DNA of 64,000 nt from Candidatus Omnitrophota bacterium. GTDB taxonomy: Bacteria > Omnitrophota > Gorgyraeia > Pluralincolimonadales > Pluralincolimonadaceae. A program made the translations under genes and the position numbers. The notes under the pieces are model-generated. The model had not been told where the DNA came from. It saw nothing but the letters and a program-made list of their open reading frames with translations, and did no database searches. The stretch covers positions 126,289 to 190,288 of the forward strand of contig PLNR01000005.1 of NCBI GenBank assembly GCA_003141835.1, given 5' to 3'. Within the stretch, counting starts at the first letter, position 1, and every line of letters begins with the position of its first letter. Below are positions 44,436-57,047 of the stretch, in pieces.

Positions 44436-45132
44436 TCCGAGTAAGGATAATCCCAGGAAATACGGCAAGGCGCCTTATACCGTCGCAGTCATCCACGGCG
44501 GGCCCGGAGGGGCCGGAGAAGTCGCGCCGGTCGCTCGCGAACTCTCATCGGAATACGGCATCCTCGAGCCGCTCCAGACGGCTGTTTCAGTCGACGGGCA
44601 GGTCGAAGAATTGAAGGCTGTCCTGGAGAAAGAAGCGGAACTTCCTGTCGTGTTAATAGGCCATTCGTGGGGAGCCTGGTTGAGCCTTATCCTTGCGGCA
44701 AAACATCCCTTGTTGGTAAAAAAGCTCATTCTTGTCGGAAGCGGGCCGTTCGAAGAGAAGTACGCCGCCGAGATATCAAGGGCCAGGCTTGACCGCATGG
44801 ATAAGGAAACAGTGCCTGACGCCTATGACCCGATCGAGGGTAAGCCTGAGCCGATCGATTATCAGGGGGATATATTCAATAGCGTATGGCCGGAAGCCGA
44901 GGAGTTAAGAAGCAGCGGAAGGCTGCTCGAGTTCGTGAAAGATATTAAATGTCCCGTTGTCGCCATTCATGGCGATTATGATCCGCATCCGGCCGAAGGC
45001 GTACAAAAGCCGCTATCGGCCATCCTTAAGGACTTCCGGTTTATCCTCCTTGATTATTGCGGCCATAAGCCGTGGATAGAAAAGGACGCGAGAGAGAAAT
45101 TTTTCGAGCTTCTCGAAAAAGAATTGAATTAA
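44428..45132 (+). CDS. alpha/beta hydrolase
   Basis: GHSWGAW nucleophile elbow; last core gene before the integron. Confidence 0.6.
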   Translation: MFNPSKDNPRKYGKAPYTVAVIHGGPGGAGEVAPVARELSSEYGILEPLQTAVSVDGQVEELKAVLEKEAELPVVLIGHSWGAWLSLILAAKHPLLVKKLILVGSGPFEEKYAAEISRARLDRMDKETVPDAYDPIEGKPEPIDYQGDIFNSVWPEAEELRSSGRLLEFVKDIKCPVVAIHGDYDPHPAEGVQKPLSAILKDFRFILLDYCGHKPWIEKDAREKFFELLEKELN

Positions 45133-45280
45133 TATTTTCGGAAAATGTCTTACCGGCGACCTCAAGGGGCTATTATCTTACCGCTCAGGAGACTACAGGA
45201 TAATTTACCGGATATTCCACAAAGAGATAACGGTAATAATACTGACCGTAGCCCACAGGAAAGAAGTTTATAGGTAGCTA

Positions 45281-46582
45281 TTATTGTTTATCGGCAGTAG
45301 CGTAAAGCTTATCAAGCGGGCTCTGCGGCGCGTTAGAGATATCACGTATAACGTGAGTGTATATCATCGTTGTCTCGACGTGGCTGTGGCCTAAAAGCTC
45401 CTGGACTTCCCTGATATTTACCCCATTTAGCAGTAAATGCGTAGCGAAACTATGCCTTAAAGTGTGAACGGTGGCATGTTTTGCTATTCCCGCCTTTTTT
45501 ACCGCTTCAGACATCGCATCCTGTATTGTTTTTGGGCTCATATAGAAACGTCTTATCTTTCCGGTGTCGCGCTCGGGGGAGAGTTTTGCCGACGGGAAGG
45601 CGAATTGCCATCCGAAATCTTTGACAGCTTTCGGGTACTTGCGTTCAAGCGCGTCCGGCAGCCAGGCTTCCCCGTATCCGGCGGCGAGGTCTTTCTCGTG
45701 TATCTTTTTGACCTCTTTAAGGTGCGCACGCAATTCCGCCTTCAGATATTCCGGTAGGACGGTACTTCTGTCCTTATCGCCCTTGCCGCTTCTTATGAAT
45801 ATCATTCCCGCTTCAAAATCGATATCTTTTACCCGCAAGCACGTCAGTTCGGAAATGCGCATGCCAGTGCCGTATAATAGCTGCAGGATAAGCTTGTCCT
45901 TTCCTGTTACACTGTCAAATATCTCGCGGACCTCACTCTCGGTAAGAACGACGGGAAGTTTCGGGCCGCGTTTCGCACGGACCGCGCCTGCAATATCATC
46001 AAGCCCGATCATGAGCACATCCCTGAATAAGAACAAGAGGGCATTAAAGGCCTGGTTTTGGGAAGAGGAGGAGACCTTCTTTTTAATTGCAAGAAAGCTC
46101 AGGTAATCACGCACATCCTCGCTTGAAAGACCCGATTTTTGGATATCCTTTTTACGGACACCGACTAGATACTCAAAAAAACCTTTTGCCCAGTTAACAT
46201 AAGTGCGCTCAGTCTTGTATGAATAATGTTTAACCCTGATGGCTTTGCCCATCGCGATTATAATAGAAGCAGGATCTGACCTGTCGTTTATCTGGGATAG
46301 GGTTGAATTCGGACCGAGTTTCGCGGCACTCTTGTCAAACTGCTCAAAATAGAGCTTTAAAGCGGTTTCCGCCTGGTTCATCTGCCAGTTCGCGATCCCC
46401 GGGGAATCGGAGAGCTGCTCAAGGAATTTTCGTCTTTTTTCCTGAAAATCCGCGCCCTCATCCTCATCAGAAAAGGCGACGAATTTGCTTACCCAGCGAG
46501 CGTAGAAGGGGGCATGTTTTTCATCGGCAAAGCCTCTTGAAACCAGGAATTTCTGGAAATCAGGCAGGATATCTACAAACAT
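45281..46582 (-). CDS. intI: integron integrase IntI (tyrosine recombinase) with an N-terminal extension
   Basis: Box II HTLRHSFATHLL and the catalytic Tyr region LLGHSHVETTMIYTHV. The IntI-specific insertion is KDLAAGYGEAWLPDALERKYPKAVKDFGWQFAFPS, closely matching IntI1 (LPDALERKYP...). The likely ATG at 46582 gives 433 aa; the ORF is open to 46648. Confidence 0.9.
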   Translation of the reverse strand: MFVDILPDFQKFLVSRGFADEKHAPFYARWVSKFVAFSDEDEGADFQEKRRKFLEQLSDSPGIANWQMNQAETALKLYFEQFDKSAAKLGPNSTLSQINDRSDPASIIIAMGKAIRVKHYSYKTERTYVNWAKGFFEYLVGVRKKDIQKSGLSSEDVRDYLSFLAIKKKVSSSSQNQAFNALLFLFRDVLMIGLDDIAGAVRAKRGPKLPVVLTESEVREIFDSVTGKDKLILQLLYGTGMRISELTCLRVKDIDFEAGMIFIRSGKGDKDRSTVLPEYLKAELRAHLKEVKKIHEKDLAAGYGEAWLPDALERKYPKAVKDFGWQFAFPSAKLSPERDTGKIRRFYMSPKTIQDAMSEAVKKAGIAKHATVHTLRHSFATHLLLNGVNIREVQELLGHSHVETTMIYTHVIRDISNAPQSPLDKLYATADKQ

Positions 46583-46602
46583 TTTTTCTCCCCAAAAGTA
46601 CA

Positions 46603-46628
46603 AAAACCCATAAATTACGAATTCGTAT
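46603..46628. repeat. direct repeat 1 containing perfect 12-bp palindrome TACGAATTCGTA
   Basis: AAAAACCCATAAATTACGAATTCGTAT; palindrome at 46616-46627, just downstream of the predicted Pint start site. Confidence 0.6.
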
Positions 46629-46636
46629 TTCCTGCT

Positions 46637-46664
46637 ATTATAGGCCAAAGGCGAAATCTGTCAA
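46637..46664 (-). promoter_or_regulatory. candidate Pint promoter (TTGACA-16-TATAAT on - strand)
   Basis: Reverse complement of 46659-46664 is TTGACA and of 46637-46642 is TATAAT; reads toward the intI start. Confidence 0.5.
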
Positions 46665-46675
46665 CAAAAATTGTG

Positions 46676-46703
46676 TTGTAAAGTCAGGCGAAAATGGTAT
46701 ACT
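46676..46703 (+). promoter_or_regulatory. candidate Pc cassette promoter (TTGTAA-16-TGgTATACT extended -10)
   Basis: TTGTAA at 46676-46681 and TGgTATACT at 46695-46703; reads toward attI and cassette 1. Confidence 0.45.
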
Positions 46704-46720
46704 CCCGTTTAGGGTAGAAC

Positions 46721-46748
46721 AAAGACCCATAAACGACGAATTCGTATA
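46721..46748. repeat. direct repeat 2 (near copy of DR1) adjacent to attI crossover
   Basis: AAAGACCCATAAACGACGAATTCGTATAT; 11/12 palindrome GACGAATTCGTA at 46735-46746; lies downstream of the Pc start site and 8 bp from GTTATGC. Confidence 0.6.
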
Positions 46749-46761
46749 TTATATGTTATGC
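46726..46761 (+). other. attI recombination site, crossover G|TT in GTTATGC at 46755-46761
   Basis: TTATGC at the start of cassette 1 is the exact complement of R'' GCATAAC in that cassette's attC (47514-47520), as expected for attI x attC insertion. An L-like box CCATAAAC lies upstream. Confidence 0.55.
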
Positions 46762-46778
46762 ATAAAAATAAATAAAAA

Positions 46779-47519
46779 ATGGATGGAATAAAATTGTTTA
46801 AAACTCCGTATAAGCGTCCAGAGAAGTTCTCAAATCCCTATGATCATATCTCAGATAAAGAGCTTAAAGGGGTATTGGATACAGCCGATCTGGATATGGA
46901 TTGGTCTGACTATTGTATAATTTTCCATCTAACTCCTATCAGTTCATACCAAGAATCCTGTTATTTCCTTCCTTTTGCCCTTCAATATATCAATAATAAT
47001 CCGGATAATTCGTTAGATTGCTCTACGGAGATAATCTGGTTTATCTCAGAACATATCGGTAGCTTAAAAAAAGACGGTTTATTTGAAAAATGCGAGGATT
47101 CACTGAAGGCATGTTTAAATACCTGGACAAAAAATTTCGCTGTGGAGCACTTCGACAAGGAAGCCTGCCGTAAAAAAGAATGGGTCATAGATCATGACGA
47201 CGGAGTAGAAAATAGCCAATTACTCATAGAAAGTTTGGATGATATGGTCTTCTATGAATCTTTGGCGAATATTGCTTTTGATTTTATAGCAGAGATCCGT
47301 TCAAGCGAAACAGGCATACAATGCGCCTGGTATTTGGAGCTATGTAATATAAATAAAGTATACAATTGTTGTATTCAATGCGAAAAATTGAAAGAATTTC
47401 TAGCAGATCAAAAATACATAGATCGCTGTTCTGATATAGTTAAAAAAACATCTTTCATGGATCAAGTAACATCTCCCACCTATTGGAACGATGTATGCGG
47501 GAGACTAAATATTGCATAA
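46779..47519 (+). CDS. cassette 1: Cys-rich hypothetical protein (246 aa), AT-rich
   Basis: First ORF after attI, no SD. The stop TAA is embedded in the attC R'' GCATAAC. No recognisable family motifs. Confidence 0.6.
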   Translation: MDGIKLFKTPYKRPEKFSNPYDHISDKELKGVLDTADLDMDWSDYCIIFHLTPISSYQESCYFLPFALQYINNNPDNSLDCSTEIIWFISEHIGSLKKDGLFEKCEDSLKACLNTWTKNFAVEHFDKEACRKKEWVIDHDDGVENSQLLIESLDDMVFYESLANIAFDFIAEIRSSETGIQCAWYLELCNINKVYNCCIQCEKLKEFLADQKYIDRCSDIVKKTSFMDQVTSPTYWNDVCGRLNIA

Positions 47520-47588
47520 CATTTCACTCCAGCGGACGGCGCTGGCATCCTGTTCTAATGTCGCCGCCGCTGAGTTCAAACGTTGGCC
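47514..47588 (+). repeat. attC site 1 (R'' GCATAAC ... R' GTTGGCC)
   Basis: GCATAAC-ATTTCAC-TCCAGCGGACGGCG...TCGCCGCCGCTGAG-TTCAAAC-GTTGGCC. The halves are reverse-complementary with unpaired bases on one arm, as in attC bottom-strand folds. Confidence 0.8.
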
Positions 47589-47599
47589 AAATAAATCAA

Positions 47600-48028
47600 A
47601 TGGATACAAAAACAGAAGAAAGATATGTAAGCATGAGATTAGCACATGGAGACATCACTAACGCAATCGACTTGCTCAATCGTGCCAGAAAGGAAAGTGA
47701 TAACTCCATCAAGTCTACTATAGTTCGGTATTGCATTATAGTATATGCAAAACCCTTTAAAATAAGCAGGGGAATCTTTCACGCCAAATTTATACCACTG
47801 AAGGAAGAAGCAGTTTTCCCTGGTGGAAATACGGATCATAAGGCACTGATTGTTGAGCGCGACGAGAGGATAGCCCACGGCGACATAAAATCGTTTTGCC
47901 CTAAGTTACACTACTGGTCTAGACCCGACATCTTCCCATCGTGCTTAAGTCCTCTCGTCTGTATGACAACATTGACAAACTCATCGACAAGATGTTGGTG
48001 CTATGCGATACCGTTCTGCAGTACTTGA
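47600..48028 (+). CDS. cassette 2: hypothetical protein (142 aa)
   Basis: ATG 12 nt after attC1; no recognisable motifs. Low confidence that this is the frame that is expressed. Confidence 0.4.
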   Translation: MDTKTEERYVSMRLAHGDITNAIDLLNRARKESDNSIKSTIVRYCIIVYAKPFKISRGIFHAKFIPLKEEAVFPGGNTDHKALIVERDERIAHGDIKSFCPKLHYWSRPDIFPSCLSPLVCMTTLTNSSTRCWCYAIPFCST

Positions 48029-48080
48029 CCGACGAGATGAAGACCCTGGAGACCCTGTTTCGCGAACAGATTAAAAACAC

Positions 48081-48143
48081 GCCTAACTAGTGGGTGTAGC
48101 CAATCGCTGATAAATACGGCTCTAGCTGACCATCGTGTTGGCC
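48081..48143 (+). repeat. attC site 2, heterologous type (R'' GCCTAAC ... R' GTTGGCC)
   Basis: Canonical inverse core GCCTAAC, internal imperfect inverted repeats (AACTAG..TAGCC / GGCTCTAG..GTT), 63 bp; differs from the local attC family. Confidence 0.6.
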
Positions 48144-48179
48144 GTAGATATTTAAATAACAATTTGATATAATAAAACA

Positions 48180-48911
48180 ATGAAAACGAATGATACTATG
48201 AAGCATTTACCGGAGCAAGCGTCGAAGGCCGTTGCCCATTATTGGCAAACACGTGCAACTCAACGCAAGAAGCAGGAAAAGAGTGGCAAGGCAGACCAGG
48301 GGTCGCGTAGTGCAGTGACTGGCGGCGCCCATATGGATGGGTTTGTTACCCTTTTTGCTAACCTCATCATGCAAGGAGGTATACCCGAGCGGTTCATTTT
48401 TCGCAAAAAAACCATAGAATTACCAGGCTTTTTCAGGCCGACAAAAGAATGGGACCTGGTGGTTGTCCGGGATCGGGTTTTGATTGCAGCAATTGAAGCC
48501 AAATCACAAGTCGGACCATCCTTTGGAAACAATTTTAACAACCGAACAGAGGAGGCGATGGGCAGTGCGCTTGATCTCTGGACAGCTTATCGTGAAAAAG
48601 CCTATCTTGACAGCCCACAGCCATTTCTCGGTTATTTTTTTATGCTCGAAGACTGCGAAGCGGCTAACCGTCCGGTTAGCGTGCAAGAACCCCATTTCAA
48701 GGTTTTCCCTGAGTTCGTTGGTGCATCGTACATGCGTCGTTACGAGCTTTTCTGCCGCAAACTCGTTTTAGAGCGACACTATACTTCATCAGCATATATT
48801 ACGTCATCAGCAACAGAGGGTGTTCGAGGCGTTTTCAACACACCAGCGCCCGACCTTTCGATAGAACGATTTGCAAAATCTCTTGTTGCGCATGCTACCG
48901 CCGCAAGGTAA
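48180..48911 (+). CDS. cassette 3: putative type II restriction endonuclease (PD-(D/E)xK)
   Basis: VVVRDRVLIAAIEAK fits a D...(E)xK nuclease motif; lies 5 bp upstream of a DNA methyltransferase in the same cassette. A TGaTATAAT extended -10 sits at 48165-48173. Confidence 0.6.
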   Translation: MKTNDTMKHLPEQASKAVAHYWQTRATQRKKQEKSGKADQGSRSAVTGGAHMDGFVTLFANLIMQGGIPERFIFRKKTIELPGFFRPTKEWDLVVVRDRVLIAAIEAKSQVGPSFGNNFNNRTEEAMGSALDLWTAYREKAYLDSPQPFLGYFFMLEDCEAANRPVSVQEPHFKVFPEFVGASYMRRYELFCRKLVLERHYTSSAYITSSATEGVRGVFNTPAPDLSIERFAKSLVAHATAAR

Positions 48912-48915
48912 TTCC

Positions 48916-49854
48916 ATGAAGGCTACCTCACATAGACTCGTAAATGGTGATTCCCGAGATTTATCTTTTTTAGATGACGAATCAGTGCATCTCGTAGTTA
49001 CATCCCCGCCATATTGGAGCTTAAAAAGATATAACGAAAATCCCAATCAGCTCGGTCACATTCAAGAATATGAAACATTTCTTTCTGAAACAGAGAAAGT
49101 ATGGCGTCATGCATTTCGTGTTCTAGTGCCAGGTGGTCGGCTTGTATGCGTCGTAGGAGATGTATGTGTATCACGCCGCAATTTTGGTCGCCACCTCGTT
49201 TTTCCGCTACACTCAGACATAAGCGTTATTTGTCGGAAAATTGGATTTGACAATTTGAATCCTATAATATGGCACAAGATCTCAAATGCGTCTTATGAAG
49301 TGGCAAATGGATCTAAGTTCCTCGGTAAGCCGTATGAACCAAATGCAATCATTAAAAATGATATAGAATTTATTTTGATGCAAAGGAAACCAGGGGGGTA
49401 TCGTAACCCAACTGATGCACAACGCATTGGGAGCAAGATTTCCAAAGTCGACTTTAATACTTGGTTTCAACAAATATGGAACATTCCCGGAGCGTCAACT
49501 AAACATCACCCAGCCCCATTTCCTTTAGAGTTGGCTAACCGTCTCGTGCGCATGTTCTCATTCGTAGGCGATACAGTACTCGATCCATTCTGCGGTTCGG
49601 GAACGACTATGGTTGCAGCCCTGAGAGCAGGCCGCAACAGTATAGGGGTTGAAATTGACCCCGAATATTCACGCATGGTTGCACGAAACTTAAAGGCTGA
49701 AATAGCCAATCTCTTTTCGAATGAATCTTTTATTTTTGAGAAGGCCGTAATAGAACATGATAACCTTATCAGAAAAGACGAAGAAATTTATCAAATTCGG
49801 CCAACAATTCACCGCAGCGGACGGCTTACGGCCGCCGCTGAGTTCAAACGTTAG
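48916..49854 (+). CDS. cassette 3: beta-class DNA amino-methyltransferase (N4-cytosine/N6-adenine), SPPY motif
   Basis: Motif IV VVTSPPYW precedes motif I LDPFCGSGTT (beta-class order). The C-terminus reads through attC3. Confidence 0.85.
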   Translation: MKATSHRLVNGDSRDLSFLDDESVHLVVTSPPYWSLKRYNENPNQLGHIQEYETFLSETEKVWRHAFRVLVPGGRLVCVVGDVCVSRRNFGRHLVFPLHSDISVICRKIGFDNLNPIIWHKISNASYEVANGSKFLGKPYEPNAIIKNDIEFILMQRKPGGYRNPTDAQRIGSKISKVDFNTWFQQIWNIPGASTKHHPAPFPLELANRLVRMFSFVGDTVLDPFCGSGTTMVAALRAGRNSIGVEIDPEYSRMVARNLKAEIANLFSNESFIFEKAVIEHDNLIRKDEEIYQIRPTIHRSGRLTAAAEFKR

Positions 49855-49856
49855 AA
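49799..49856 (+). repeat. attC site 3 (R'' GGCCAAC ... R' GTTAGAA)
   Basis: GGCCAAC-AATTCAC-CGCAGCGGACGGC-TTAC-GGCCGCCGCTGAG-TTCAAAC-GTTAGAA. R'' is the exact complement of the TTGGCC that begins the cassette at 48138. Confidence 0.8.
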
Positions 49857-49915
49857 ATAGAAATTGATATATTTCCCCACCATAAAATATCGATCAGAAT
49901 AAACATAAATAATAC

Positions 49916-49944
49916 TTGACAAACAGAATAATTATACGTATATT
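49916..49944 (+). promoter_or_regulatory. cassette-internal promoter for brnTA (TTGACA-17-TATATT)
   Basis: TTGACA at 49916-49921 and TATATT at 49939-49944; a 17-bp spacer. Confidence 0.45.
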
Positions 49945-49950
49945 GTATGT

Positions 49951-50238
49951 ATGAATCTGATTAGATTCGAGTGGGATGATAGCAAGAGTAAGCAAAATAA
50001 AAAGAAGCATGGCATATCATTTGAGGAAGCGCAGAGCGTATTTTACGATGAGCGCGCTATTCAATATTACGACCCGGATCATTCCAAAGATGAAGACAGA
50101 TTTATAATGCTTGGAATGAGTATCAAAACAAGAGTTCTGGTTGTCTGCCATTGCTATAGGAAGAATGGCGCGAGGGTAAGGATAATATCAGCGAGAAAAG
50201 CCGAAAAAAATGAGGAAAACGAATATTGGAGGAGATAA
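49951..50238 (+). CDS. brnT: BrnT-family toxin (DUF497 ribonuclease)
   Basis: FEWDDSKSKQNKKKHGISFEEAQSVFYD matches the BrnT consensus (FEWDxxKxxxNxxKHGVxFxEA). Confidence 0.85.
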   Translation: MNLIRFEWDDSKSKQNKKKHGISFEEAQSVFYDERAIQYYDPDHSKDEDRFIMLGMSIKTRVLVVCHCYRKNGARVRIISARKAEKNEENEYWRR

Positions 50239-50239
50239 A

Positions 50240-50455
50240 ATGAGAGCACATTATGAATTTTCGAAGATGCGTGGCCGTCGCAACCCGTATATTAAGTATT
50301 TGAAACAGCCTGTCACTATCCGGCTGGACAAGAATACTGTGGCGTATTTCAAGGCGCTTTCTGATAAGGTCGGGATGCCGTATCAGAACCTGATAAACCT
50401 TTATCTAAGGGACTGTGCTTTTTCGCATAAAAAGCTTCATTTGAAGTGGTTGTAG
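50240..50455 (+). CDS. brnA: BrnA-family antitoxin
   Basis: RNPYIKYLKQPVTIRLDKNTVAYFKALSDKVGMPYQNLINLYLRDC matches the BrnA consensus (VTIRLD..YFK...G.PYQTLIN.YLR). A GGAGGAG RBS is present. Confidence 0.85.
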   Translation: MRAHYEFSKMRGRRNPYIKYLKQPVTIRLDKNTVAYFKALSDKVGMPYQNLINLYLRDCAFSHKKLHLKWL

Positions 50456-50463
50456 GGAAAAGT

Positions 50464-50559
50464 ATGAGAAAGATCAAATTAACCGAAGAGGAAAGAGAAA
50501 TCGAAGAAGCTTTGTTGAAAGATGAATGTGTTGATATTGGCAGAAATGAATTTAAATAA
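50464..50559 (+). pseudogene. 31-aa remnant resembling the N-terminus of a BrnA/RHH-type antitoxin
   Basis: MRKIKLTEEEREIEEALLKDECVDIGRNEFK is a typical antitoxin N-terminal motif (LTEEExE..L..GE) without the DNA-binding remainder. Confidence 0.3.
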
Positions 50560-50560
50560 A

Positions 50561-50608
50561 TAGCTGATGCTATTGCTTCACGGAAAAGCGCAATCAAATT
50601 CAAACTTT
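50561..50608 (+). repeat. decayed attC-like relic (TTCAAAC followed by TTT instead of GTT)
   Basis: GCTGATGCTATTGC..GCGCAATCAAATTCAAACTTT retains the TTCAAAC spacer and a partial stem of the local attC family but has lost the crossover G. Confidence 0.3.
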
Positions 50609-50621
50609 GCAGGAAATCATC

Positions 50622-50882
50622 ATGAAGGACTGGGATTACAGAGTTATAAAAAAGTATGATGCCAAATTAGGAGATGAGTCCCATCAGATTCACGAGGTTT
50701 ATTACCGAGAGGATGGAACCATAGATGCTTGGACGGAGTCGCCAGTGCAGCCTTATGGGGATACGCCAGAAGAGTTGCGGGAGGATATTAGGTTTTTTCT
50801 TCAGGCATTCCATCATCCAGTTTTAAAGTTACAATCAGTCGATGGTAGACAAAATCTCATTGAAGATGCCGATGTGCTATAA
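50622..50882 (+). CDS. small HicB-like (UPF0150 fold) protein
   Basis: VYYREDGTIDAWTESPVQPYGDTPEELREDIRFFLQAF resembles the HicB N-terminal core (EDGGY..P..PG..GDT.EEA). No HicA partner was found. Confidence 0.35.
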   Translation: MKDWDYRVIKKYDAKLGDESHQIHEVYYREDGTIDAWTESPVQPYGDTPEELREDIRFFLQAFHHPVLKLQSVDGRQNLIEDADVL

Positions 50883-50905
50883 TAATATCTTCTTTAAACT
50901 AAGAA

Positions 50906-51379
50906 ATGAACAAAGAATCAAAAGGTAATGCCGGAATGTCGCTGCTTAAGATAGTCCAAGTAATTTGGACTATACAATTGATCCTCGTTTCCTCCATAGT
51001 AATATTACATCCGCTTTTTTCCATAGTTAAGATCATAGTCCCTTTGTTCGCTTTATCGTTCGTATATTCGACCCTAGGCATAATCTCAAATCGCAAGCGT
51101 GCCTGGATAGCATCAATATTTTTACTGACCCTGTATTGGTTAATAATGGGTTGGCAGGCAATAGTAAGTTTCTTCTTAAATAATTATCTTTTCTTCACTA
51201 ATCATCCGCTTTATATAGATTCACCGGCTACGATCCTGGTTGTATACGCGGGCGCAATATTTGGCATACTGCCGGCGGGGATATTGACATTACTTTATAT
51301 CTTCAATTACAGGCAGATCAGGACTAATTGGGGTCAGCCGTTGAGTTCAAATGTTTTATTCGAGAAGGGGGTCTCATGA
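50906..51379 (+). CDS. 4-TM integral membrane protein of unknown function
   Basis: Four hydrophobic helices; lies 23 bp downstream of the HicB-like ORF with no attC between them. The C-terminal 8 aa are a translation of an attC relic. Confidence 0.55.
   Translation: MNKESKGNAGMSLLKIVQVIWTIQLILVSSIVILHPLFSIVKIIVPLFALSFVYSTLGIISNRKRAWIASIFLLTLYWLIMGWQAIVSFFLNNYLFFTNHPLYIDSPATILVVYAGAIFGILPAGILTLLYIFNYRQIRTNWGQPLSSNVLFEKGVS
51335..51359 (+). repeat. attC half-site relic (conserved R'/L' arm only)
   Basis: CAGCCGTTGAGTTCAAATGTTTTAT differs at 2 positions from the family arm GCCGCTGAGTTCAAACGTT; no complementary left arm was found. Confidence 0.4.
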
Positions 51380-51978
51380 AATTCAAACATATCGTTACGA
51401 TTCTTGTTCTTGTCATGGTATCCAGCATCGCCTTGGCGGATCAAGAGGGTCCTAATGAACTGTATGTCACGGGAAACGGCCCATTTTATTTAAAGTGTAT
51501 TCCCGCCGAGGCACTTAGAGATCGGGAGAAGGGTAAGACGATGGTATATCTTGCGGGAAAAGAAAGCGATACCCTCATCCATACCTTCGACTGGTATTCA
51601 CCGAGAGCATTCATTACCGGATGGGGAGGCGGCACGTCGGTTATTCGATTGGGACCCTGGCCCCGCGGATCCAAAGCGTCGGCAAGTGATCTCGGAATCG
51701 CCTTTTATCGAGATGAAAAGTTGGTGGCAAGATACTCGACATTGGATCTTGCGGGTAACGAGGGGAATGTCTCCGTATCCGTTTCCCACTACGGGGTGAT
51801 CAAGGATGTTATCGGGATTGTGAGAGTGTACGAGAAGAAGGGTGAAGATATTCTATCTGCCGATCCAGAATATGCATTCGAGATCGTACTGCATGATGGC
51901 AGAAGGCTTCTCTTTGATATCCATACAGGCAAGAGAGTGAAGCTAACAGACAACATGTTCACGATATTGGATAAATAA
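51376..51978 (+). CDS. secreted hypothetical protein (200 aa)
   Basis: Signal peptide MKFKHIVTILVLVMVSSIALA|DQ; no family motifs. Confidence 0.6.
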   Translation: MKFKHIVTILVLVMVSSIALADQEGPNELYVTGNGPFYLKCIPAEALRDREKGKTMVYLAGKESDTLIHTFDWYSPRAFITGWGGGTSVIRLGPWPRGSKASASDLGIAFYRDEKLVARYSTLDLAGNEGNVSVSVSHYGVIKDVIGIVRVYEKKGEDILSADPEYAFEIVLHDGRRLLFDIHTGKRVKLTDNMFTILDK

Positions 51979-52103
51979 ATTGGGGATAATTAAGGTGACA
52001 GCATACTTAATTCGGTTAAGGGCAGAGTGGGGTGGCACTAAGTGACGCGTCCCCATAAGATACGTTCTTTTTGGTGTCATAGTGGCAAAATAATAAATAA
52101 AAT

Positions 52104-52179
52104 ACCTAACATTTCACTCCAGCGGACTGCGCCAGCCATCCGTTATCAAGGGCTCGGCCGCTGAGTTCAAACGTTCGAT
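52104..52179 (+). repeat. attC site 5 (R'' ACCTAAC ... R' GTTCGAT)
   Basis: ACCTAAC-ATTTCAC-TCCAGCGGACTGCGCC...GCTCGGCCGCTGAG-TTCAAAC-GTTCGAT; same family as attC1 and attC3. Confidence 0.8.
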
Positions 52180-52181
52180 GT

Positions 52182-52688
52182 ATGAGGTATGAGATGGAAG
52201 AACTCGACGACAATGCGCAGCAACGACGCGAGACGTTTGCCCGCTACGGGCTCGCCATGTACCATGCGCAGTGCGTTGAAAAGAGCCTCGCAATCCTGGT
52301 TTCCAGTGTTTTTAATAAGGAGTTCCTACCGAGCAACCCCAATCGGCGCGAAGAGATTCAAGATGAGGTGTTTAGCAAGACCATTGGCAGATTGCTGACC
52401 CGAATGAGGAAGCAGATCGCTGTCCCGACGAAACTAGACAGGACGCTGGATGATGCCTGGCAGAAGCGGAACTGGCTCGCACACGAGTATTTCTGGGCTA
52501 GGGCGGGAGAGATTATGACCACGCGCGGCCGAGACAAGATGATTCGGGAGCTTACCGAGCTTTCGGACCTCTTCTCCAAAGTGGACGCCCATCTTGTGTC
52601 CATCTATGAGAAGTGGAACAAGAGGGCCGGGGTCCCGCAGACGGTGATTGAGCAGAATCTGAGGAAGCTGATCCAAGACAACGAGTGA
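52182..52688 (+). CDS. HEPN-domain protein (Rx4HxY motif), solo
   Basis: KRNWLAHEYF = R-x4-H-x-Y, the HepT/HEPN RNase signature. GC-rich codon usage unlike the neighbouring cassettes. The start may be the ATG at 52194. Confidence 0.55.
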   Translation: MRYEMEELDDNAQQRRETFARYGLAMYHAQCVEKSLAILVSSVFNKEFLPSNPNRREEIQDEVFSKTIGRLLTRMRKQIAVPTKLDRTLDDAWQKRNWLAHEYFWARAGEIMTTRGRDKMIRELTELSDLFSKVDAHLVSIYEKWNKRAGVPQTVIEQNLRKLIQDNE

Positions 52689-52691
52689 GGC

Positions 52692-52723
52692 GTCGAACCA
52701 GCGCCTGAACGGTACGGCGCTAG
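52692..52723 (+). repeat. stem-loop / truncated attC-like element
   Basis: GTCGAAC-CCAGCGCC-TGAACGGTAC-GGCGCTAG. GTCGAAC is 6/7 complementary to the TTCGAT that begins this cassette (at 52174), but no GTT core follows. Confidence 0.3.
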
Positions 52724-52724
52724 A

Positions 52725-53606
52725 ATGATTAATATGAAAGCAAGGAAGATTGGACTGGTATTTCTAATTTTGATGGCGGGTATCTCGGGTTTTACCTTTG
52801 CAAATGAACAACCTATAATTGGTAAACTTGGCAAGCCTGTCGGCACAGAACTGACAATCGAAGGGACATTTCAAGGCGGCAAGAACAGTTGGATTCTCGT
52901 AACCAAAGTAAATGAAAAGGAACTCTCTTCTCCCGTATTAATTGCTACATCTCTTGACACTTTTGAAGCTATTAAGACGGACGCTGGCTGTCGATTCAAG
53001 GGCATGGAAGTTACCTATGTCGTCAAGCCGGTCATAGACCCCACAACTGGTAAGCAAGGTCAACAAGCTGCACCCGGCAGGCATCTTGCTTTTAAGGTGA
53101 CCAAAGTCCTCGTCCCTAAAGGCGTCAAAATTAGAAAAGAAGAAGAAAGCAACAATCTGATTTCCTGGGGAGAGGGTAAAAACGGAATCTCCTGCGGGAT
53201 TTCCCTTAGTAAGCCCAGCTATGTATTAGGAGAGGACGTCGAGGTGTCTATATTCCTCAGGAATAACTGTAACCGGGAACTAAAATGCAATGTTCGGGGT
53301 ATCGGGTCATGGCGCAATATAGAGAATGGCGCTATGTGCATGGATCTTGTATTTAATGAGGTTGGCGACCGGCGGTACAATGGGACAGAATACACTGTTC
53401 CTAATGGAAAAGTTTGCATGATACTTGTCCAAAAGTTCCATACGCGCCCTTTAAATAATCCCATGAGCGACCTGCATTTCACTCCAGGCGAGAAAAGTAT
53501 CATTGTTCAATGTGATCCGCGGTTTGAAGGGAACGAGTTGTCTGGCATTTATTCGGGGATAGCTACTGTAGAAGTTGTCGAATTAGAAGCTGGGAATAGC
53601 CGCTGA
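52725..53606 (+). CDS. secreted hypothetical protein (293 aa)
   Basis: Signal peptide MKARKIGLVFLILMAGISGFTFA|NE; several Cys residues. The stop TGA lies inside the conserved attC arm. Confidence 0.6.
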   Translation: MINMKARKIGLVFLILMAGISGFTFANEQPIIGKLGKPVGTELTIEGTFQGGKNSWILVTKVNEKELSSPVLIATSLDTFEAIKTDAGCRFKGMEVTYVVKPVIDPTTGKQGQQAAPGRHLAFKVTKVLVPKGVKIRKEEESNNLISWGEGKNGISCGISLSKPSYVLGEDVEVSIFLRNNCNRELKCNVRGIGSWRNIENGAMCMDLVFNEVGDRRYNGTEYTVPNGKVCMILVQKFHTRPLNNPMSDLHFTPGEKSIIVQCDPRFEGNELSGIYSGIATVEVVELEAGNSR

Positions 53607-53621
53607 GTTTAAACGTTCAAT
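53598..53621 (+). repeat. attC half-site relic (AGCCGCTGAGTTTAAACGTTCAAT)
   Basis: Matches the family R'/L' arm with one substitution; the left arm was not identified. Confidence 0.45.
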
Positions 53622-53636
53622 ATAAAGGGAGTTAAT

Positions 53637-54260
53637 TTGAGGTCCGTCGTACTGATACTTGTGTTTGTTACCATTGTATCTTTCTTGGTATATCGGGCTT
53701 TGTGCCCACAGCCGTGTTCGGGAACGTGGTTTTGGGAGCGAATTCTAACCCCTTACTCATTCATCGTTGATGAGAACAAGACGCAGATCACTTTCGTCTG
53801 GGTTGGGACCGATACACGTGAGTTTTTTCGAGTGTCCCGCGCTGCCGTGACCGTCTCCGGCCCAGAGTCGATCAAGAACCACATCGAACGTCTAATCGGG
53901 TACATGGAAGGCGAGACCCAGCAATGGGGACGAGTTGTTGGCAAGTCGTATGAACGCGACCTGCAAATATTGACTTTGGTTGATATGGGAGCGAATCCTG
54001 TCGCATGGCGAGCATGGTGGACCCAGAACAGAAGATTGTTTGTTGGTTCTCCCAGTGCCTACGAGGAACTGCGGAAAGATCGCATTGCCAGGGATGTCGA
54101 ACAATACGGTATATCAGAAAGGGCCAAATCCGAGTTGCTTTGGGGCAAAGAATATCGCAGGGTGAGGATTCTGTGCTGGTCGAGCTTGGTAACGGCATTG
54201 ACCTGCTTCATCCTGGCGCTCCTCATAAGTGTGAAGCAGTTCATAAAGAGAAGGCGATAA
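53637..54260 (+). CDS. hypothetical protein with N- and C-terminal TM segments
   Basis: TTG start 8 nt after AAAGGGAG; hydrophobic N-terminus VVLILVFVTIVSFLV and C-terminus LVTALTCFILALLISV. Confidence 0.45.
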   Translation: MRSVVLILVFVTIVSFLVYRALCPQPCSGTWFWERILTPYSFIVDENKTQITFVWVGTDTREFFRVSRAAVTVSGPESIKNHIERLIGYMEGETQQWGRVVGKSYERDLQILTLVDMGANPVAWRAWWTQNRRLFVGSPSAYEELRKDRIARDVEQYGISERAKSELLWGKEYRRVRILCWSSLVTALTCFILALLISVKQFIKRRR

Positions 54261-54261
54261 T

Positions 54262-54786
54262 ATTAAGACAAAGATACTGTTTCTTATCGCTATAATTTGT
54301 TTTCTTCCTGCAGCCCACGTTCATGCAATTAATGAAGATGTTAAGCGTTTAATTGCTGAAGATGTTCTTTCCCGAATAGAACCCGATTTTTATTTTTTCA
54401 AAGAAAAAGCACAAAATGTTGAAAAGCTCTTTAAGGATTGTGATTTTCAAGAAGTTGATTTAAACGATGACGGAAAACCAGAAATTATTGTAAAAGAAAA
54501 TTGGCTCTCGGAAGGCAATGATGGATTTCCAAAAGGGCGTAGTTTTGTTCGCAGCTCTCAAGATCAAGGCTACTATTTCATATATTCAGTTTTGAATGCT
54601 AAGCCCAAATATATAGGTTGTATTGAAGGGGGCTCTTGGGAAGCTCTATCAGTAACAAGCAACGGTTTTAAAGATATTAAGACATATCATCGTATGGGTT
54701 ATGATGAGTGGATAGTCAGTGTGTACAAATATAATGGAGATAAATACAAGCTGGCGTCTCAAGTTACTGAAAAAGGAGAGGAATAA
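54262..54786 (+). CDS. AT-rich secreted small protein ORF lacking a canonical start codon (possible ATT start or pseudogene)
   Basis: Own translation of frame 1 from 54262 gives IKTKILFLIAIICFLPAAHVHA|INEDVKRLIAEDV...KYKLASQVTEKGEE with no stop; a signal-peptide-like N-terminus and an upstream AAGG. The ORF track only shows the TTG-initiated tail 54592..54786. Confidence 0.35.
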   Translation: MKTKILFLIAIICFLPAAHVHAINEDVKRLIAEDVLSRIEPDFYFFKEKAQNVEKLFKDCDFQEVDLNDDGKPEIIVKENWLSEGNDGFPKGRSFVRSSQDQGYYFIYSVLNAKPKYIGCIEGGSWEALSVTSNGFKDIKTYHRMGYDEWIVSVYKYNGDKYKLASQVTEKGEE

Positions 54787-54804
54787 TTACATTAAAGGAG
54801 CCGT

Positions 54805-55266
54805 ATGAAATACCTTAAATATCTCGCTATCGGCGCAGCAATAGTCTTGGCATGCGCCGCGGTATGCCATTTTACCGGGGCGAATAACGCCAGCATGCCG
54901 GCTGCCAGGCTCGTGCCGGGTGACATAACATGGAAGGCCGACCCCAAACTGCACGGGCTGGAGACCGCGGTCCTGGCAGGGGACCCAAGCATTGCGGCGC
55001 CATACACCCAGCGCATCAGGATACCCGCCAATACCATCCTGAAACCCCATTCGCACCCGAATAAGGGAAGGATGGTTACCGTACTGTCCGGGACTTTCTA
55101 TTTTGGCTACGGCGATAAGTTCGACGAGACGAAGCTCAAGAGGCTCCCTCCCGGGAGCTTCTTTACCGAGCCGAGCGGGATGCCGCACTATGCGGTGGCC
55201 AAAGAGGGGGATGTAGTCCTCCAGCTTAACGCTATCGGTCCTGACGGCATGGTATACGTAAAATAA
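54805..55266 (+). CDS. secreted cupin-fold protein
   Basis: Signal peptide plus two-His cupin-like motifs (HSHPNKG ... PSGMPHYAV); GC-rich. Confidence 0.55.
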   Translation: MKYLKYLAIGAAIVLACAAVCHFTGANNASMPAARLVPGDITWKADPKLHGLETAVLAGDPSIAAPYTQRIRIPANTILKPHSHPNKGRMVTVLSGTFYFGYGDKFDETKLKRLPPGSFFTEPSGMPHYAVAKEGDVVLQLNAIGPDGMVYVK

Positions 55267-55317
55267 TTGAAAGAAAATCCCGCCATTTTGCGTCTATAAC
55301 TATGTCCTATAATATTA

Positions 55318-55345
55318 TTGACATATCGGGATGATATGCTATAAT
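55318..55345 (+). promoter_or_regulatory. candidate sigma70 promoter of the ilv-leu operon (TTGACA-16-TATAAT)
   Basis: TTGACA at 55318-55323 and TATAAT at 55340-55345; about 45 nt upstream of the ilvD ATG, which has a GGAG RBS. Confidence 0.45.
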
Positions 55346-55388
55346 CTGTAATTCACGTATAACCCTAGGTAATCCAAGGAGATATATC

Positions 55389-57047
55389 ATGTTAAGAAGC
55401 GATAGGGTCAAGAAAGGCCTCGAGAAGGTCGGAAGTCGTTCGCTCATGTACGCCACAGGCATGACGAAGTCCGAGATGGAGCGGCCGTTCATCGGCATCG
55501 CGTCCAGTTTCACGGACCTTGTGCCGGGCCATATCCATTTGCGCGAGCTTGAGCGCTCGATCGAGCACGGGATCTACGCGGCCGGCGGCACCGCCTTTGT
55601 CTTCGGCATACCGGCCATCTGCGACGGCATAGCCATGGGCCATTTGGGCATGCATTGCTCGCTTCCTTTGAGGGAGCTCATCGCCGATTCGGTCGAGATG
55701 GTTACGACAGCCCACGCTTTGGACGGGCTCATATTGCTTACGAATTGCGACAAGATCACCCCTGGAATGATGATGGCGGCGTGCAGGATGAATATCCCGG
55801 CTATCGTCGTCACCGGCGGGCCGATGCTTTCGGGCCGTTCGGGGATGAAACGCCTCTCGCTCGTCAAGGATACGTTCGAGGCGGTCGGAAGGCACAGGGC
55901 AGGAGAGATCACCAGGGAAGAGCTTGAAGAGCTCGAGTGCAGCGCTTGCCCGGGCGCGGGCGCCTGCCAGGGCCTTTATACGGCGAATACGATGAGCTGC
56001 CTCTCCGAGGCGCTCGGTATCGCAATGCCGGGCGGGGCTACGGCCCTCGCGGCATCGGCTAAAAGAGAGAGAATAGCATATTTAAGCGGCGAGCGTATCG
56101 TCGAGCTCGTCAAGAAGGATATAACACCTAAAAAGATCCTGACCCCGAAAGCGATCGAGAACGCGCTGCGCGTCGATATGGCGCTCGGAGGGTCGACGAA
56201 TACCGTTTTGCACGTCACGGCAATCGCGCATGAGCTTGGCATAAAAATGCCGCTCGATATCTTCGATAAGATAAGCCGGGAGACGCCGCATATCTCGGAC
56301 ATACTGCCTTCGGGCAAATATTTCATGGAAGACCTCGAGTTCGCCGGCGGCATTCCTGCGGTCTTGAAGAGGCTTAAACCGGAATTGAGCAACCTCCCGA
56401 CGGTCAGCGGCAGGACGATCTACCAGATCGCCGACGCCGCGCGCATAGACGACGAGGAGGTCATCAGGCCGTTGAACAGGCCGTATCATAAAGAAGGAGG
56501 TATAGCCGTCCTGAAGGGCAACATTGCCCCGGACGGTGCCGTAGTCAAACAGAGCGCTGTCCAGGAGAAGATAAGGCATTTCATCGGAAAAGCGAAATGC
56601 TTTAATTCCGAGGAAGACGCGATGAAGGCTATCATGGCGAAGAAGATAACCGCAGGCGACTGCGTCGTCATCCGCTATGAAGGTCCCAAGGGCGGGCCGG
56701 GTATGAGGGAGATGTTATCCCCGACCGCGGCCATCGTCGGTATGGGATTAGCCGATAAAGTCGCTTTGATCACAGATGGAAGGTTCTCCGGCGGAACACA
56801 GGGGCCGTGCATCGGGCATATAGCGCCTGAGGCGGCCGAAGGCGGGCCTCTCGCCGCGATTAAAGACGGCGATACGATCGAGATCGACATCAACAAGAGA
56901 AAGCTCGAGTTGAAGGTCTCGAAGGCCGAATTGACTAAACGGATGAGATCAATCAAGGCGCATAAGCCGAAGATAACGACGGGCTACCTCGCGCGTTACG
57001 CGAAACTCGTCACATCTGCGAGCACCGGCGCCGTTATGAAAGGTTAA
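55389..57047 (+). CDS. ilvD: dihydroxy-acid dehydratase
   Basis: [16 protein letters not shown] and Fe-S ligand region CPGAGACQG. Confidence 0.9.

Follow-up and report, generated by a model that had tools for sequence, protein, structure and literature searches.

Within a 64,000-nucleotide (nt) stretch of the Candidatus Omnitrophota contig PLNR01000005.1 (positions 126,289 to 190,288; hereafter the window), a sedentary chromosomal integron carries a cassette whose single coding sequence (52194..52688, plus strand) specifies a 164-amino-acid (aa), all-helical, HEPN-like protein. We propose, at a probability of about 0.6, that this protein is a stand-alone member of a large unannotated family, most probably a branch of the HEPN RNases, that spreads as a promoterless cassette of approximately 570 bp, and that the copy in the window, truncated in its attC site, encodes a latent RNase of defence or growth arrest. 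Support for the coding sequence comes from its homologues, its motif, its ratio of nonsynonymous to synonymous substitution rates (dN/dS) and an AlphaFold2 (AF2) model.

Homologues of the protein are numerous and widely distributed. At E ≤ 1e-3, a 90%-clustered database yielded 137 of them, almost all 164 aa in length and all named "hypothetical," and a 50%-clustered library yielded 2,895 clusters, 1,434 of which were also found at E ≤ 1e-10. The related loci come, among others, from Desulfobacterota-like "Deltaproteobacteria," Planctomycetota, Chlorobium, Armatimonadota, Omnitrophota, Chloroflexota, Acidobacteriota, and Elusimicrobiota, and also from Pseudoalteromonas, Buttiauxella, and an archaeon; a viral scan recovered the family on one contig only. 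Conservation was assessed in an alignment of 107 diverse members with a mean column identity of 31%. E29, R92, N93, H97, and F100 are invariant in all 107, and Q26, T63, G65, L95, G112, and E119 are nearly so, while position 99 is occupied by tyrosine in 93 members and by phenylalanine in 14. An earlier reading of the window (the sequence-only reading) had recognized a HEPN signature around R92 and H97, and these two residues do not vary among the homologues. Comparison with the closest relatives gives dN/dS values of 0.07-0.09, indicating strong purifying selection on the gene. About a dozen of the 150 listed representatives of the 50% clusters are longer, at 280-300 aa (P0152, P0158, P0164, P0174, P0188; also L024, 4435-5313), and carry roughly 120 additional C-terminal residues without a Pfam match above cutoff, possibly a sensor or partner domain that has been fused on.

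The AF2 model (predicted local distance difference test score, or pLDDT, of 94) is all-helical, with helices at residues 6-39, 49-60, 64-74, 79-97, 110-144, and 149-163. The motif KRNWLAHEYF, of the form Rx4HxY (residues 91-100; codons 52464..52493, plus strand), lies at the C-terminal end of the predicted helix 79-97 and, as judged from the secondary structure of the model only, is followed by a loop and the long helix 110-144. In HEPN domains, whose core consists of four helices in an up-down arrangement, an Rx4-6H motif closes the third helix and a loop then leads to helix 4; helices inserted between the second and the third are typical (Anantharaman et al. 2013, PMC3710099). The family-wide sequence R92-N93-W-L-A-H97, which has a polar residue directly after the arginine, agrees with that pattern in spacing and in position, and the short helices 49-60 and 64-74 precede the motif helix. 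A Pfam scan of the 107 members returned HEPN-clan families as the only recurrent signal: weak matches to the HepT-like family PF01934 in 41 of them (best E value 5.8e-6), to DUF4145 in eight, to HEPN_Apea, HEPN_RiboL-PSP, and DUF3644 in two each, and to HEPN_LA2681 in one. Both DUF86 and DUF4145 belong to the HEPN families grouped in Pfam clan CL0291, and there is overlap between DUF3644 and the EC042_2821 HEPN family (PMC3710099). Where the coordinates of the PF01934 matches are visible, they span approximately 33 residues round the motif.

Several results weigh against this placement. Even at E ≤ 10, Pfam, NCBIfam, and PADLOC contain no match to the window protein itself, and in PHROGs it matches only phrog_12893, a family of unknown function (4e-6). 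Searches of PDB sequences by phmmer and with profiles (the window protein, A1, A2, and two distant members) retrieved no HEPN chain, and Foldseek searches of PDB and BFVD produced only non-significant helical bundles and no HEPN structure. An hhalign comparison with genuine MNT-linked HepT proteins, taken from cyanobacterial plasmids together with their homologues in a shallow alignment (effective number of sequences, Neff, 2.5), covered the 12 motif columns only, at a probability of 0.5% and P = 0.11. The invariant acidic residue of the family falls in predicted helix 1, as opposed to helix 2 in typical HEPN domains. As regards the proposed defence role, the relatives linked to Gabija and Qat systems (see below) are distant, at approximately 31% identity.

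These negative searches are what would be expected if the family were a conserved helical non-nuclease, for example a four-helix bundle that binds a ligand, a nucleotide, or a protein, whose resemblance to HEPN is convergent or non-catalytic; many of the HEPN-clan domains attached to nucleotidyltransferases are indeed non-catalytic (PMC3710099). We consider this explanation unlikely, though deserving of serious attention. It must contend with an arginine, an asparagine, and a histidine that never vary, stand at precisely the HEPN spacing, and close a helix, with the recurrence of HEPN-clan families and no others in Pfam, and with gene neighbourhoods in which defence and toxin genes abound; a placement outside HEPN came from none of the profile searches. 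Judged from sequence comparison, membership in the HEPN superfamily is therefore probable, by roughly three chances in four, and at this level the HEPN signature proposed in the sequence-only reading largely holds.

The gene has no partner in the window or at more than 100 related loci. We examined 106 such loci, drawn from genomes as well as metagenomes across widely differing phyla, and among their 1,155 flanking open reading frames (ORFs) there is no conserved neighbour; the genes that surround it in the window were likewise rejected as conserved partners; no Pfam family recurs in the 145 nearest neighbours, the commonest being integrase with three matches. Neither an MNT-like motif nor a paralogue occurs in the 64-kb window, and a motif search across all fetched loci found no HepT-like ORF; the genuine HepT genes that were fetched for comparison have MNT directly upstream in all cases. 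The absence of an MNT or other partner, remarked upon from the window alone, thus extends to the relatives, and the upstream partner that had been envisaged for homologous cassettes did not appear at any of the more than 100 loci.

Many of the relatives are themselves single-gene cassettes. A strict scanner detected an attC that begins at the stop-codon TAAC at no fewer than 18 loci, and an attC on both sides of the gene at no fewer than eight, with a leader of 7-22 nt in seven and of 39 nt in L038. These counts are lower bounds, because the scanner misses obvious sites such as that of L039. Four cassettes that were measured by hand are 560-574 bp long, with leaders of 12-22 nt, leaving no space for a second gene or a promoter. 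At two loci from Vicinamibacterales (L020, 5980-6911; L102, 2980-3911), two diverged paralogues form a tandem pair and overlap by 4 nt; the motif recurs in the second one, as RNRLFHSFY, which suggests a heterodimeric version.

The more specific assignment to HepT in the sequence-only reading does not hold. HepT, the toxin of type VII systems (PF01934, formerly DUF86), shares with the window protein the R-x4-H-x-Y motif, the polar residue after the arginine, the location at the end of a helix, and the character of a small all-helical protein, and the weak PF01934 matches of the relatives are centred on this motif. The window protein is, however, approximately 50 aa longer, with extra helices, lacks an MNT, and allows its tyrosine to be replaced by phenylalanine. 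Of the features of a type VII toxin, Y99 of RX4HXY is present, the adjacent MNT is missing, and the gathering score of PF01934 is not reached; the window protein has no PF01934 match at E ≤ 10, and its hhalign comparison with HepT is not significant. The replacement of Y99 by phenylalanine in 14 of 107 members indicates that the tyrosine hydroxyl is not essential.

The same motif, with a tyrosine two residues after the histidine as in HepT, and the same weak PF01934 matches could also be accounted for by an orphan type VII toxin that has lost MNT from its cassette and is neutralised in trans through AMPylation of Tyr99. That is very unlikely: there is no adjacent MNT in the window or at the related loci (a trans-acting MNT was looked for within the 64 kb only), cassettes of 560-574 bp are too small to hold one, the solo gene is under strong purifying selection, the tyrosine hydroxyl is dispensable, and the alignment with genuine HepT is not significant. 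One ORF on the Synechocystis plasmid pSYSA (L118, 30352-30669), annotated as "HepT-like ribonuclease domain-containing protein," lacks the motif histidine (RNIAVLGE) and diverges after residue 60; from its sequence it looks like a degenerate HepT.

Returning to the proposed solo cassette, its start is well defined. Directly upstream lies an intact array-type attC (52104..52179, plus strand) in which CCGCTGAGTTCAAACGTT recurs exactly as at 47567-47584 and 49835-49852, together with a matching 5' arm; its bottom strand folds into an imperfect hairpin (-12.4 kcal/mol). The crossover of this site, G|TT, falls at 52173|52174, and the cassette therefore starts at 52174. The 20-nt 5' leader (52174..52193, plus strand) comprises TTCGAT, the R' half that belongs to the cassette itself, and, at 52184-52187, a ribosome-binding site of sequence GAGG, and the arrangement GTT(C)GATG(Y)ATGAGG is kept in close homologues from other phyla. 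The reading frame is open from 52182; ATG 52194 is the preferred start, because the homologues are 164 aa long and begin with MEELD and because GAGG lies 6 nt upstream of it. At 20 nt, the leader is too short for a promoter.

In base composition the gene (G+C content 0.545; G+C content at third codon positions, GC3, 0.715) stands apart from all other ORFs of the array (GC3 0.31-0.59), as had been observed in the sequence-only reading. The different donor deduced there from this contrast receives no support, since the host backbone has a GC3 of 0.73-0.79, equal to that of the gene. A backbone-like GC3 points to a history different from that of the neighbouring cassettes and provides no evidence for an exotic donor.

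At its 3' end the cassette retains a relic of its own attC (52692..52723, plus strand). The relic comprises an R'' box, GTCGAAC (52692-52698), and an inner stem, CAGCGCC/GGCGCT(AG), in which CAGCGCC (52699-52705) is separated by a 10-nt loop from GGCGCTAG (52716-52723); the 3' part of the site with its GTT is missing, and AATGATT follows GGCGCTAG in its place. GTCGAAC is complementary to G plus TTCGAT at the cassette start at six of seven positions, as expected for the R'' and R' of one attC, which bears out a near-complementarity that had already been spotted in the window. Six close homologues of different lineages all have TCGAA immediately behind the stop codon. In the L113 copy (87% identical), the sequence tgaggcATCGAACCAGC... 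is colinear with the relic and continues to a complete AAC...GTT site, and an alignment with L113, L111, L001, L002, and L004 reveals that at least 28 nt, including the GTT, are missing from the window copy; the L111 copy (82% identical) has a textbook attC after the gene (-23.5 kcal/mol, z = -6.0). It is this comparison with homologues, and not hairpin folding alone, that establishes the origin of the relic, the hairpin by itself not being beyond chance (-7.1 kcal/mol, z = -1.5, with 20 of 200 shuffles as good). By alignment, then, the 3' element is a truncated attC, as had been suspected from its stem-loop and lack of GTT.

Exactly at the relic, GC3 drops from 0.715 to 0.446, the latter being the value of an unrelated 293-aa ORF (ORF293; 52725..53606, plus strand) with an N-terminal hydrophobic, signal-peptide-like segment. 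ORF293 has no Pfam, NCBIfam, PADLOC, or PHROG match. The next array-type attC (53474..53617, plus strand) is degraded: its 3' arm, CCGCTGAGTTTAAACGTT (53600-53617), has one mismatch and carries the crossover base G at 53615, and the 5'-arm-like CATTTCACTCCAGGCG at 53474-53491 does not fold with it (z = +1.1, +1.8). With the next crossover at 53615, the attC-bounded unit is 52174-53615 and contains two ORFs, so that 52723, where the cassette had earlier been thought to end, is no functional cassette end. Having lost the 3' half of its own attC with the GTT, the gene is fused to ORF293 and would no longer be excisable alone. A partial attC that separates two ORFs of differing composition within one attC-bounded unit is the classic signature of cassette fusion. 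The locus resembles other cassettes fused or immobilised by attC decay in both respects; such decay and fusion are routine integron biology, and there is nothing unusual in them here.

That the two ORFs share one attC-bounded unit, lie on the same strand 36 nt apart, and have no terminator between them might suggest a two-gene module instead, such as toxin and immunity or effector and sensor, in which the intervening hairpin would be regulatory and not an attC relic. We regard this arrangement as exceedingly improbable. A homologue of ORF293 adjoins none of the family members at the 106 related loci, and the close homologues reside in single-gene cassettes; the jump in GC3 separates the two ORFs, the element between them can be aligned to the 5' portion of L113's complete attC, and the signal-peptide-like segment suggests that the product of ORF293 is probably exported.

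Solo toxin genes are sometimes accompanied by RNA antitoxins, and a type I antisense RNA or a type III repeat RNA, within or overlapping the cassette, could in principle hold a toxin in check; an antisense RNA inside the coding sequence would be compatible with the sequence. This, too, is highly improbable. There are no tandem repeats in 51900-53700, an Rfam search at E ≤ 0.1 gave no match in 45000-55500, promoter-like sites, whichever the strand, are as frequent as chance predicts (three found vs. 3.1 expected), and intact cassettes, with leaders of 12-22 nt and an attC at the stop codon, have no free space for such an element.

The neighbourhoods of relatives, which bear on the proposed role of the stand-alone RNase, are rich in defence genes. 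In a distant subclade (approximately 31% identity), the HEPN-like protein is encoded in a four-gene operon with GajA (471 bits), GajB (353 bits), and a 303-aa protein. This variant of Gabija was found in L021, L023 (2393-7409), L090, L093, and L094, with gene junctions that overlap by 4 nt or lie a few bases apart. Its GajA is an OLD ATPase-TOPRIM protein, its GajB a UvrD helicase, and its HEPN-like member is 175 aa long; the 303-aa protein has no Pfam, NCBIfam, or significant PADLOC match. Another member, 31% identical, is located on the Vibrio parahaemolyticus plasmid NZ_CP114196.1 (L107, 190924-191436), 107 nt downstream of qatD; a complete QatABCD antiphage system occupies the same strand there, and related copies occur on other Vibrio plasmids. 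Closer copies adjoin genes for AbiJ_NTD5-TIR, HNH, ThsB_TIR, and ParE/Phd proteins, and the array in the window itself contains defence-type cassettes, namely an XhoI restriction-modification system and BrnT/BrnA.

The array occupies an island of low G+C content (approximately 44%) at roughly 45.2-55.3 kb of the window, whose backbone is approximately 54-56% G+C; it is flanked by an alanine racemase/alpha-beta hydrolase pair and by ilvD/ilvB. At the start of the island is a gene for a 455-aa integron integrase (45281..46648, minus strand; TIGR02249 at 397 bits vs. a cutoff of 265, Pfam Phage_integrase and SAM_4), and all downstream ORFs have the opposite orientation. The 18-mer CCGCTGAGTTCAAACGTT, an attC 3' arm, is present in five copies at ≤2 mismatches where 0.04 would be expected. 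The five array-type 3' arms end at 47584, 49852, 51355, 52175, and 53617, and three of the sites (47518-47584, 49803-49852, and 52108-52175) fold as the imperfect AAC...GTT hairpins typical of attC. No foldable partner arm was found for the arms ending at 51355 (51338-51355) and 53617 (z = +0.1 to +1.8). On the basis of the TIGR02249 integrase and the repeated attC arms, three of them folding, the locus is a sedentary chromosomal integron with a decaying distal part, in which the cassette of the HEPN-like gene is the fifth unit. No intact attC was found in the array after 52175; as the attC that follows the HEPN-like unit is also degraded, the whole distal half of the array appears fossilised.

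Other features of the array are as follows. The integrase has an N-terminal extension of approximately 130 aa (its TIGR02249 match begins at residue 132), and the same extended integrase adjoins family members in an Omnitrophota genome (L009, 3700-5007) and on a metagenome contig (L042, 1460-2815). A cassette of 2.27 kb (47585-49852) holds a complete XhoI-type restriction-modification pair, consisting of the endonuclease (48180-48911; PF04555, 3e-93) and an N6/N4 methylase (48871-49854), and upstream in this cassette lies an ORF (47600-48028) whose C-terminus is apparently frameshifted. The BrnT/BrnA toxin-antitoxin pair (49951-50455; PF04365 at 2e-30, and PF14384) is in the cassette that follows the XhoI unit, along with two more ORFs, which reach as far as the degraded attC at 51355. 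Two ORFs, 50906-51379 and 52725-53606, extend into degraded attC arms. At the far end of the island, a cupin gene (54805-55266) has a backbone-like GC3 of 0.69; the array may truly end here, and the interval from 53617 to the cupin gene yielded no attC.

Solitary HEPN proteins in integron cassettes are not in themselves new. An "integron cassette HEPN" family, represented by PDB entry 3JRT from Vibrio cassettes, was proposed to consist of stress RNases or RNases that induce dormancy (Anantharaman et al. 2013, PMC3710099). The present family resembles it in having a conserved Rx4-6H motif and in occurring in integron cassettes without MNT. The two differ in that 3JRT was not retrieved by phmmer or profile searches at E ≤ 10 and is not among the 50 Foldseek matches listed, and in that the 3JRT family is confined to Gammaproteobacteria, whereas the present one extends across many phyla. 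Cassettes of chromosomal integrons encode many one-gene antiphage systems, among them Esos of Vibrio cholerae, which has only a HEPN-like domain (Darracq et al., bioRxiv 10.1101/2024.07.02.601686), and a protective HEPN-AbiU2 cassette has been described from Vibrio mimicus (2026 preprint). Like the Esos, HEPN-AbiU2, and AbiV cassettes, the cassette described here is one small HEPN-only gene in a chromosomal integron array. The likeness to Esos is one of description only, and the window protein matches neither the AbiU2 nor the AbiV Pfam model. For Esos-type cassettes, phage protection accompanied by growth arrest has been demonstrated experimentally, with activation on transfer to the first array position, whereas the present family is known from sequence alone. 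What is new, on these comparisons, is a family that is large, cross-phylum, absent from Pfam, NCBIfam, and PADLOC, and unrelated in sequence to 3JRT.

From these data we have attempted to predict how the cassette might function. The active-site motif would be HepT-like (R-N-x-L-x-H-x-Y/F-F) and paired with the invariant glutamate in helix 1. The protein would act as a homodimer, in which two Rx4H motifs would form a composite, metal-independent RNase site, as in other HEPN enzymes. The family would spread as a promoterless, single-gene cassette of approximately 570 bp, with a leader of 12-22 nt and an attC at or directly after the stop codon. Two circumstances might make a protein antitoxin unnecessary. 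The gene would be expressed only by read-through from upstream and would be nearly silent at its distal position, and the protein would be latent until triggered, probably through intrinsic gating, for which the additional helices at the C-terminus (110-163) could serve as a module of regulation or dimerisation. Its role would be phage defence, or growth arrest, through RNA cleavage. A distal cassette has been found to remain weakly expressed until it is shifted to first place in its array (Darracq et al., bioRxiv 10.1101/2024.07.02.601686). The sequence-only reading had cautioned that a free-standing HEPN RNase would be toxic unless regulated or inactive; that concern is softened by the published single-gene HEPN cassettes and by the poor expression of distal cassettes.

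A broader interpretation, which we offer tentatively and consider rather doubtful, is that the approximately 2,900 clusters constitute an unnamed, cross-phylum clade of autonomous, antitoxin-free HEPN phage-defence RNases. Such enzymes would be spread by integrons, their C-terminal helices would serve as sensor or latch, and in some lineages they would have been recruited to Gabija-like (GajA-GajB-X-Y) and Qat systems.

Should the family prove to be an active HEPN RNase that works without a partner, it would be a widespread addition to the minimal one-gene effectors of defence or dormancy in chromosomal integrons, and it would supply a model that Pfam and PADLOC are missing. At 164 aa and free of an antitoxin, the protein would offer a simple system for asking how a HEPN nuclease stays harmless. 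The Gabija variant and the copies adjacent to Qat suggest, moreover, that the same module has been reused as an accessory effector.

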